From a virus (Duplodnaviria > Heunggongvirae > Uroviricota > Caudoviricetes), in IMG/VR virus record IMGVR_UViG_3300001598_000045, positions 1 to 64,000 of that record: a stretch of 64,000 nt of DNA. One strand, 5' to 3'. The notes beneath the pieces were generated by a model that saw only the letters and a list, made by a program, of their open reading frames with translations, did not search any database and was not told the DNA's origin. Below, piece by piece: positions 35,611-36,012 of this stretch. How positions within the stretch are numbered: the stretch's first letter is position 1; every line of letters starts with the position of its first letter. The translations under genes were made by a program, and so were the position numbers.

Positions 35611-35700
35611 TAGACTATATCTTTTACTATAATATATAGTCGTTGAGCCAAATTTATTTTGGTTGCTGATTTAATATTAATATCTTTCCAGCAATTCTTT
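35611..35700 (-). ncRNA. group I intron catalytic core h (P/Q + R/S elements), compact
   Basis: Minus-sense P AGAATTGCTGGAAAG, Q TAAATCAGCAACC, R GGCTCAACGACTATATA, S AAAGATATAGTCTAAA. These match the group I consensus elements, with P4 pairing TGCTGG/CAGCA and P7 pairing GACTAT/ATAGTC. Confidence 0.55.
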
Positions 35701-35721
35701 ATATTTTGTAACACCCTACTA

Positions 35722-36012
35722 TTAAGTGTTATCTAGATCCCGCATTAAATATCCTGAGTTAAAGATTACATTTATATTCATTCTAAATAGTGTATCTTTA
35801 TTCACCCAAGGGTAGTTAACGGGAATATCTAGCAATCTAACCTGCTCCTTTATATAATCTTCAGTTCTTTTTGCTTCTCCTGATTTATATATAGTAGCAC
35901 ATGGTCTTCCTTTAGTATATATAAGACGGGCTGAATATAGAGCGTTGACAGATAATATTTTTCTAGCACCTAATATTATACTTATTTCATGCTTTTCCAT
36001 ATTAAATACCAA
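35722..36012 (-). CDS. hypothetical protein, possibly an intron-associated ORF remnant
   Basis: 96 aa; overlaps the helicase stop by 11 nt and sits directly upstream of core h. Confidence 0.35.
   Translation of the reverse strand: MVFNMEKHEISIILGARKILSVNALYSARLIYTKGRPCATIYKSGEAKRTEDYIKEQVRLLDIPVNYPWVNKDTLFRMNINVIFNSGYLMRDLDNT

Follow-up and report, generated by a model that had tools for sequence, protein, structure and literature searches.

The classical phage group I introns (those of T4 td, nrdB and nrdD/sunY, of SPO1 DNA polymerase and of Twort orf142; Rfam family RF00028) are roughly 250-1000 nucleotides (nt) long, and a P8 hairpin between the 3' strand of P3 (P3') and the joining segment J8/7 is part of the canonical conserved group I core, within the P3-P8 stack. 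At ~205 nt, the Azoarcus pre-tRNA-Ile intron generally counts as the smallest group I intron to self-splice, and its P2 and P8 dock via a tetraloop-receptor contact. The element described here lies in positions 1-64,000 of IMG/VR record IMGVR_UViG_3300001598_000045 (hereafter the window, which means this whole 64,000-nt stretch), from an uncultured, jumbo-type phage with multisubunit RNA polymerase (RNAP) genes (Pfam Rpb1_2, Rpb2_6). With a probability of about 80%, minus-strand positions 35724-35581 are a miniature group I intron without an open reading frame (ORF), in a gene for a RusA-like Holliday-junction resolvase with a fused C-terminal domain. Its presence in a phage gene is nothing out of the ordinary for a group I intron; what makes it a new structural variant is the 144-nt core without P2 and P8, and it represents a large, under-annotated family that curated models miss.

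The window intron resembles the classical phage introns in its site within a conserved motif of a DNA-metabolism gene, its sporadic presence among relatives, the exon-end U.G pair in P1, the terminal G, the P3/P7 pseudoknot, the near-consensus P, Q, R and S elements and the stop codons right after the 5' splice site; P8-bearing members of its family are also seen by RF00028, at 69-79 bits. It differs from them in its length, in having no P2, P8, peripheral helices or endonuclease ORF, and in that RF00028 is blind to it at E<=10. The Azoarcus intron is likewise a minimal natural core without peripheral domains or ORF, but the window intron has neither P2 nor P8 and is ~60 nt shorter. Natural reduction below 200 nt is also seen in degenerate 'group I' introns of fungal rRNA (56-81 nt), which have only P1, P7 and P10 and no P3-P6 (PMC3160393), whereas the window intron keeps the whole P3-P7 core with canonical P/Q/R/S. 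Gut 'Jug' jumbo phages carry ~18.5 introns per genome with a mean of ~206 nt and read-supported splicing for 37 of 76 (PMC12880540), and introns of MarsHill-like phages have been predicted by protein alignment (bioRxiv 10.1101/2020.12.14.422802). Jug and AR9-MarsHill-type introns belong to the same family by covariance model, and the window intron is shorter than the Jug mean. In the parts of these two reports compared here, the host genes fall in the same classes (RNAP, DNA polymerase, terminase), introns were found via subtype covariance models or protein alignment, the RNA architecture is not described, and a RusA-like gene is not among the listed intron hosts. A search of the literature for the smallest, minimal or P8-less group I introns found no description of P8 loss.

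All genes around the element are on the minus strand. From 36060 to 35400 the order is the end of a helicase gene, a 92-codon frame, a 138-nt gap and an ORF of 181 amino acids (aa), which resolve as follows:

35725-36000, minus strand: exon 1, codons 1-92, ending ...RDLDNT, with its last base, U, at 35725 (translation, gapless homologue alignment)
35581-35724, minus strand: group I-type intron, 144 nt, without ORF (splice join, score of covariance model R2, fold)
35038-35580, minus strand: exon 2, codons 93-272 plus stop, starting CUU AAA UUA (LKLVQDG...) (translation, homologues, structure model)

The exon 1 frame, read from the ATG at 36000, ends ...MRDLDNT and runs into UAA UAG UAG, and the 181-aa ORF opens with an ATG (35583-35581) made up of the three last bases of the intron. 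Joining 36000-35725 to 35580-35038 gives a protein of 272 aa. Searched separately against Pfam and PHROGs, neither half-ORF has a match; the joined protein matches RusA-like PHROG families and, over the junction, Pfam RusA (PF05866; residues 84-118, E 9e-4, a borderline 20.3 bits against a cut-off of 22.8). Relatives of the joined protein, sought among 5.8 billion proteins, number 37, and 36 of these are uninterrupted proteins of 264-304 aa with both halves fused; the sole fragment is the 181-aa ORF of the window phage itself. Twenty-seven relatives (264-277 aa) have 46-63% identity, mostly over 93-100% of the joined protein. Alignment to the uninterrupted homologues has no gap at T92|L93; the break between codons 92 and 93 lies within the catalytic RDLDN|TLK motif, flanked by the invariant residues R87, D88, D90 and N91 on one side and K94 and D98 on the other. 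Both exons are open and retain all 35 invariant family positions, including the DLDN...K...D...NDS residues that are invariant in the alignment. An AlphaFold model of the joined protein (predicted local distance difference test score 84.9) puts the junction at the start of helix 90-103, and its top Protein Data Bank matches in a Foldseek search are E. coli RusA structures (1q8r and 2h8c; probability 1.0, target template-modelling score 0.69-0.76). Fold search and residue conservation thus give both hallmarks of RusA, the fold and the catalytic acidic motif. The likeness to E. coli RusA, the nearest known relative of the split gene's product, extends over the N-terminal ~135 residues, which have the RusA fold and the D-x-D-N...K...D...N-D-S motif; the window protein differs in an added C-terminal domain of ~135 aa. 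This conserved alpha/beta domain, past the RusA domain (35038-35450, minus strand), has no Pfam match. Relatives of ~300 aa carry PF15891 in its place, and fusion of a resolvase to a domain of this kind is unusual.

The first-pass annotation had described the flanking ORFs correctly (35722-36012, 96 aa from a TTG, and 35038-35583, 181 aa) and had offered two explanations, either an intron-containing replication gene with the 96-aa ORF as a degenerate intron ORF and the 181-aa ORF as a second exon, or a mobile or relic element between genes. The gapless junction and the full-length fused homologues make the 96-aa ORF exon 1, complete with invariant R87, D88, D90 and N91, rather than an intron ORF, and make the 181-aa ORF, minus its ATG, exon 2. 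As judged from the sequences, the 92-aa and 181-aa ORFs are predicted to be exons 1 and 2 of one 272-codon RusA-like resolvase gene. A gene is split, as proposed, and the second exon is borne out, but both belong to the resolvase and not to the helicase, whose 470-aa gene is complete. The overlap of the 96-aa ORF with the helicase stop exists for the TTG start only and disappears with the ATG at 36000 (92 aa), which fits the N-termini of homologues. Since removal of 35724-35581 restores a conserved protein without insertion or deletion, an intergenic relic or mobile element is unsupported; the intron is exactly the 138 nt between the ORFs together with the stop codon and the ATG. Homologues of ORF 35038-35583 as an independent gene, which would have spoken for that alternative, did not emerge, since the relatives are full-length fusions except for the phage's own entry. 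Among viral contigs the RusA-like gene was found at one locus, where it is uninterrupted. A megablast of 34000-38000 against phage records gave no match. The syntenic relative (contig L088), in which a 499-aa helicase, a DnaB-like helicase, an intact 272-aa gene, DUF3223 and YAcAr follow in this order, represents the intron-less allele, with the helicase, DUF3223 and YAcAr neighbours that the gene has in the window.

The group I core that drew attention to this site, with all four elements and exact R and S, is present as described. A motif search of the window places R (CAACGACTA) on the minus strand at 35645-35637 with 0 mismatches and S (AAGATATAGTCTA) exactly at 35623-35611 on the same strand, the longer string AAGATATAGTC(TA) also having 0 mismatches; P (GAAUUGCUGGAAAG) and Q (AAAUCAGCAAC) are both found 5' of R and S. 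The four elements, AAUUGCUGGAAAG / AAUCAGCAA / CAACGACUA / AAGAUAUAGUC in the order P / Q / R / S, form P4 and P7, as in group I introns. The structural parts of the element are:

35709-35731, minus strand: P1 hairpin (minimum free energy and centroid folds, read from sequence)
35628-35703, minus strand: P3, in a pseudoknot with P7, formed by UAUAA (35703-35699) and UUAUA (35632-35628) in register with the family
35664-35693, minus strand: P4 with enclosed P5 (fold, covariation, sequence reading)
35648-35662, minus strand: P6 hairpin CCAAA/UUUGG (fold, family covariation)
35613-35647, minus strand: J6/7 to the 3' strand of P7 (sequence reading)
35590-35608, minus strand: P9 hairpin UUAUAUUU/AAAUAUAA (sequence reading)

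The intron begins with UAAUAGUAG, which reads as the three in-frame stops UAA UAG UAG (of six in the 144-nt insert in the exon frame), and ends ...AAAAUG with the omega-G at 35581, the terminal G typical of group I introns. In P1, UAACACU|U (35731-35724, comprising the seven last bases of the exon and the first of the intron) pairs with the internal guide GGGUGUUA (35716-35709) to give 8 base pairs (bp) with a 7-nt loop and the characteristic splice-site wobble, U35725.G35715. P2 is absent, and a 6-nt A-rich joiner leads from P1 directly to P3. P4 pairs UGCUGG (35693-35688) with UCAGCA (35669-35664), whose strands are the P and Q elements; P5 pairs GAUA (35684-35681) with UAUU (35676-35673), and J4/5 and J5/4 are A-rich (AAA on either side). 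J6/7 is CUCAAC and J8/7 is AAGAUA (35623-35618). P7, in which GACUA (35641-35637, within R) pairs with UAGUC (35617-35613, within S), crosses P3 as a pseudoknot. The P8 hairpin of group I introns is missing; its position holds only a 4-nt linker, GUAA (35627-35624), and with 10 nt from P3' to P7' there is no space for a hairpin. All helices that are present (P1, P3-P7, P9) are fully paired, and the minimum free energy fold of the insert is more stable than those of shuffled sequences (z = -2.97). The intron holds no ORF of >=40 aa and no homing endonuclease ORF of the HNH, GIY-YIG or LAGLIDADG kinds.

The mechanism proposed follows the established group I pathway. P1 would form between the exon end UAACACU and the internal guide GGUGUUA, with the U.G wobble placed at the 5' splice site; folding of the P4-P6 and P3-P7 domains would include the P3/P7 pseudoknot, and P7 (GACUA/UAGUC) would provide the guanosine-binding site. 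Exogenous guanosine would attack after U35725; the terminal G35581 would then take the same site, and the freed exon 3'-OH would attack after G35581, ligating ...GAUAACACU to CUUAAAUUA... and releasing the 144-nt intron. On unspliced mRNA the ribosome would stop at UAA UAG UAG, so that full resolvase would come from spliced mRNA only. The predicted ligated cDNA junction is GATAACACT|CTTAAATTA and the predicted junction peptide ...MRDLDNTLKLVQDGLFR, which contains DLDNTLK. The split gene, its junction, the helices, the covariation of relatives and the absence of P8 are observed; catalysis, with or without a protein helper, is our inference. Splicing of the window intron in vivo is quite probable, while self-splicing of the bare RNA, unaided, stands at slightly under an even chance.

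A different outcome would be a gene that stays split, in which the two parts, of 92 aa and, starting at the AUG at 35583, of 181 aa, are made separately and assemble into the enzyme, with the RNA as a mere spacer. Stops stand directly after exon 1 and an in-frame AUG directly before exon 2, which makes separate translation of the second half formally possible, and jumbo-phage RNAP subunits do work as split polypeptides (PMC7598289). However, the break would fall within the catalytic DxDN...K...D motif, at a helix start in the middle of a single RusA domain; the terminal AUG is not specific to the RusA-like gene, as it also ends the introns W49 (in the window), L054, L082 and that of phage LY01; and separate translation gives no account of a retained, complete, covarying core with a U.G P1 fitted to the exon. 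This arrangement is thus very unlikely. The same P1 pattern recurs in the three relatives checked (LY01, L091 and W49), with a different guide fitted to its own exon each time.

Homology to accepted group I introns was established through covariance models. The first, R1, was built from the window core alone, as a single sequence with a hand-written structure; a MAFFT alignment of eight cores misplaced P3' and P6 and was not used for the model. At E<=0.01, R1 has 166 matches, drawn from 58 sources. It had earlier matched contig L011 at 41 bits, and RF00028 accepts L011 as group I at 68.8 bits, a link that implies homology of the window core to accepted group I introns. The second model, R2, was built from sequences outside the window only, and it matches 35709-35581 at full length with 91.7 bits, E 2.2e-16 and no non-canonical pair. 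A pattern scan of viral contigs gave relatives of two kinds, both sharing the same P/Q/R/S. RF00028 accepts the kind with a P8 of 3-4 bp and a GAAA loop (L003, L011, L016), at 69-79 bits, and does not accept the kind without P8 (L007, L012, L013, L020, L022); the window intron is below the RF00028 threshold as well.

Covariation was examined in 61 distinct sequences. In this set the paired fraction of cells is 93.8%, whereas shuffles give 64% and none of 500 attains the observed value; 26 of 29 pairs show double changes, and sliding the partner columns by 1-3 positions as a control lowers pairing to 37-53%. P3 is 98.3% paired with double changes in five of five pairs, P4 97%, P5 85% and P6 94%, and all five P6 pairs vary on both sides. 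The P3 register is also legible by eye in unaligned sequences (UAUAA/UUAUA, CUUUG/CAAAG, CUUCA/UGAAG, GUAUA/UAUAC, UCACG/CGUGA).

By covariance-model match, the family is abundant in Staphylococcus jumbo phages and on jumbo-phage contigs from gut and rumen; single human-gut contigs of 140-400 kb hold dozens of copies, and LY01, MarsHill and Machias carry it too. A metagenome scan with an intron-specific pattern gave further family members from human gut and rumen; it gave no close relative and no second insertion site. A scan of bacterial and archaeal genomes (L114-L185) gave 72 exact matches to the R...S pattern, about a dozen of which occur at one and the same place on both strands, as palindromic hairpins do. 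None of the 72 passes the family model at E<=1e-4, and phage-contig matches do, which means that the model separates true copies from chance hairpins. In the sample scanned, the candidate intron family was seen only on phage-type contigs.

These results bear on the suggestion that the element only resembles an intron by chance or is something else, such as an AT-rich hairpin or terminator, an insertion like a miniature inverted-repeat transposable element, an intein or a T4 gene 60-type bypass. AT-rich hairpins are common in a window of 28% guanine plus cytosine, where the motif search finds 19 R-like 9-mers with one mismatch. Yet E 2e-16 with the independent model R2 and the failure of all bacterial pattern matches in that model are not what chance would give, and this reading, extremely improbable, is for practical purposes already refuted by alignment, covariation and R2 score. 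An intein is rejected because the insert opens with UAA UAG UAG and has six in-frame stops, and translational bypass because ACU precedes the gap with no ACU at the landing site. A terminator hairpin is rejected because the element has no terminator-like site; promoter-like sites occur in it only at chance level.

The lack of P8 is a trait of many family members. The P3'-to-P7' distance is bimodal, with 8-14 nt in 27 distinct sequences (window intron included) and 17-31 nt in 42, and the 42 long-spacer sequences carry a P8 hairpin of 3-9 bp. Two copies on one contig, L039:4673 and L039:3968, have the same P3 and R region, and their P3'-P7' segments differ by a clean 16-nt hairpin deletion alone (CTAAAG[ATGAAATTATCTTTAG]AAGATA vs CTAAAGAAGATA); their P5 and P6 sequences differ. 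An example of a P8 hairpin for insertion after 35628 is CCCGAAAGGG. Among 24 P8-less sequences, P3 is 97.5%, P6 97%, P7 100% and P9 91% paired via compensatory changes, and the fifth P7 pair swaps A-U to G-C. At least 23 distinct P8-less relatives exist, with 55-70% mutual identity except for a few near-identical groups, interleaved with P8-bearing lineages. Because P8-less lineages are diverged and interleaved with P8-bearing ones, P8 was lost more than once or long ago, and structure was kept since. Sequence comparison thus points to P8 loss as a derived reduction and a family trait of compact jumbo-phage introns, whose P8 varies between 3-9 bp and complete absence. That P8-less introns splice with only P1, P3-P7 and P9, P8 being dispensable and having disappeared either from several lineages or at an early stage of an old one, is proposed tentatively, with the odds just short of even.

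The same evidence bears on whether the element is a dead relic, a group I descendant inactivated by the loss of P8 (and P2) in what would then be a pseudogene. P8 is indeed missing, Rfam gives no match, the intron occurs at the RusA-like site in the window phage only, and a RusA-type resolvase is probably dispensable for the phage. Against decay, the remaining helices are perfectly paired and the core fits the family consensus without a non-canonical pair, both exons are open with their 35 invariant positions kept, and the at least 23 distinct P8-less relatives maintain P3, P6, P7 and P9 by compensatory change. A relic is therefore unlikely, although less so than a gene that stays split.

P8-less copies in other genes give indirect support that the design is spliced, since they occur in RNAP and DNA polymerase genes. 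By BLAST, the window intron is closest to one in the cultured Staphylococcus aureus jumbo phage LY01 (72.6% over 127 nt, E 4e-8). The LY01 intron has 154 nt, P1 UGACAGU/GCUGUCA with U.G, no P2 and no P8, ends ...AAAUG and scores 76.7 bits with R2. When joined, its flanking ORFs give a DNA polymerase catalytic subunit, which is one piece against MarsHill and Madawaska (176/176 aa, 96.6% identity); the predicted spliced junction for this P2-less, P8-less design is ...ACTGACAGT|AACTTTGTT. LY01 is viable although its DNA polymerase gene carries this element, a strong argument that the P2-less, P8-less design would be removed from RNA. In the LY01 GenBank record (OR836606.1, L186 in our set, ~181844-182888), the polymerase subunit appears as separate 'hypothetical proteins' owing to the unannotated 154-nt intron. 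A second, P8-bearing intron lies ~270 nt downstream in LY01, and the P8-bearing intron of Machias and PB50 is a different one, three codons upstream of the site of the 154-nt intron.

The 210-kb human-gut contig L091 has an RNAP beta' gene homologous to window ORF 54225-55214. A P8-less copy is inserted there between ...FNHETLNG (GGAU|, P1 CGGAU/GUCCG) and (...AUUG|) LAVATEYV, the predicted spliced junction being ...CTTAACGGAT|TAGCGGTAGCG; the window carries the same stretch, FNHETLNGLAVATEYV, uninterrupted. Micro-exons of ~10-22 codons in this gene (FDGDTVSI.., QLVPPEASAETYERMSPLKFL, YKFNHETLNG) have no start codons of their own, and one carries the catalytic FDGD motif. At least seven family introns in tandem interrupt the RNAP beta' gene on the minus strand at ~2750-6030 of L091, an extreme intron density. 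In the first 100 kb of AR9, a phage with experimentally determined splice junctions, the gyrA introns give no match and the terminase, protease and g078 introns weak ones (26-35 bits); the AR9 intron that was read through has room for P8 between P3' and a variant S element. This stretch of AR9 thus offers no experimental stand-in for a P8-less intron.

Several observations weigh against a functional intron in the resolvase gene, besides the AUG before exon 2. Rfam gives no group I match on the whole window at the gathering threshold, on 34900-36200 at E<=10 or on the whole window at E<=10. P10 is weak, ~2 bp by eye. The intron at the RusA-like site is known only from the window phage (the window and the near-identical contig L001); no orthologous intron copy at that site was found among viral-contig or database relatives, and hence there is no orthologous covariation, and no protein equal to the spliced product is among the 37 database relatives. 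The alignment of the 61 sequences was fitted to a model derived from the window sequence, which inflates the pairing percentages somewhat. Given the absent P8 and the failed Rfam searches, the RNA may have lost activity or may depend on a protein cofactor.

If P8-less introns do splice with only P1, P3-P7 and P9, they would rank as the smallest group I introns whose catalytic core is intact, and the 'universal' P8 would be dispensable. A natural intron of ~145-155 nt without P2 and P8 would redefine the minimal catalytic core and could serve as a compact scaffold for engineered splicing, e.g., in circular-RNA production and trans-splicing, with the cultured phage LY01 as a test system for the P2-less, P8-less design. 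Rfam misses at least seven window introns, with the result that split genes are annotated as pairs of 'hypothetical proteins' here and in the LY01 record; a family-specific model recovers well over 100 copies in a few hundred kb of jumbo-phage DNA from gut and rumen. Catalytic motifs of RNAP, DNA polymerase and resolvase genes are where the introns are inserted; among relatives they are present or absent site by site, and they amount to an unusually dense load.

R2 has seven further matches in the window, in or beside RNAP beta/beta' gene fragments at ~47.0-56.0 kb, and Rfam detects none of the seven:

47070-47184, minus strand: R2 match
47326-47402, minus strand: R2 match, apparently the 3' half of an intron
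48333-48377, minus strand: R2 match, apparently the 5' half of the same intron
49725-49849, minus strand: R2 match
49909-50037, minus strand: R2 match
51711-51845, minus strand: R2 match
55871-55979, minus strand: R2 match

A homing-endonuclease ORF appears to lie between the two halves, and at least the copies at 51711-51845 and 49884-50037 also lack P8. Two window introns carry ORFs with NUMOD3 motifs, namely ORF 47390-48316 and the C-terminal half of ORF 51847-54003 (both minus strand), which are paralogous, start MNYKK.YDDL..., look HNH-like by eye and are presumably homing endonucleases. In ORF 51847-54003 the endonuclease part is in frame with the upstream RNAP exon, and the ORF finder fused them into a 718-aa ORF. 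A 188-aa ORF at 55310-55876 (minus strand) without Pfam match, just upstream of an R/S-like pair with longer spacing (55306-55268) that R2 does not pick up, is possibly another intron-borne endonuclease. The sole above-threshold Rfam match in the window is a tRNA gene at 24356-24439 (minus strand).

The neighbouring helicase gene occupies the following interval:

36002-37414, minus strand: DnaB-like replicative helicase, 470 aa (Pfam DnaB_C at residues 178-397)

Its stop codon is 36004-36002, and the ATG of exon 1, at 36000, starts one base later. The first-pass annotation had suggested that ORF 35038-35583 might match a C-terminal extension of helicase homologues. The helicase C-terminus lines up with that of its L088 homologue, and because both end at the same place no C-terminal helicase exon is missing; a helicase extension as exon 2 is rejected. 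In L088 a DnaB-like helicase is itself split (383 + 89 aa) by an insert of ~237 nt at 2070-2306, while the RusA-like gene there is intact. R1 does not match this insert, which may be a different kind of intron. The window shows the reverse arrangement, with the helicase intact and the resolvase split.

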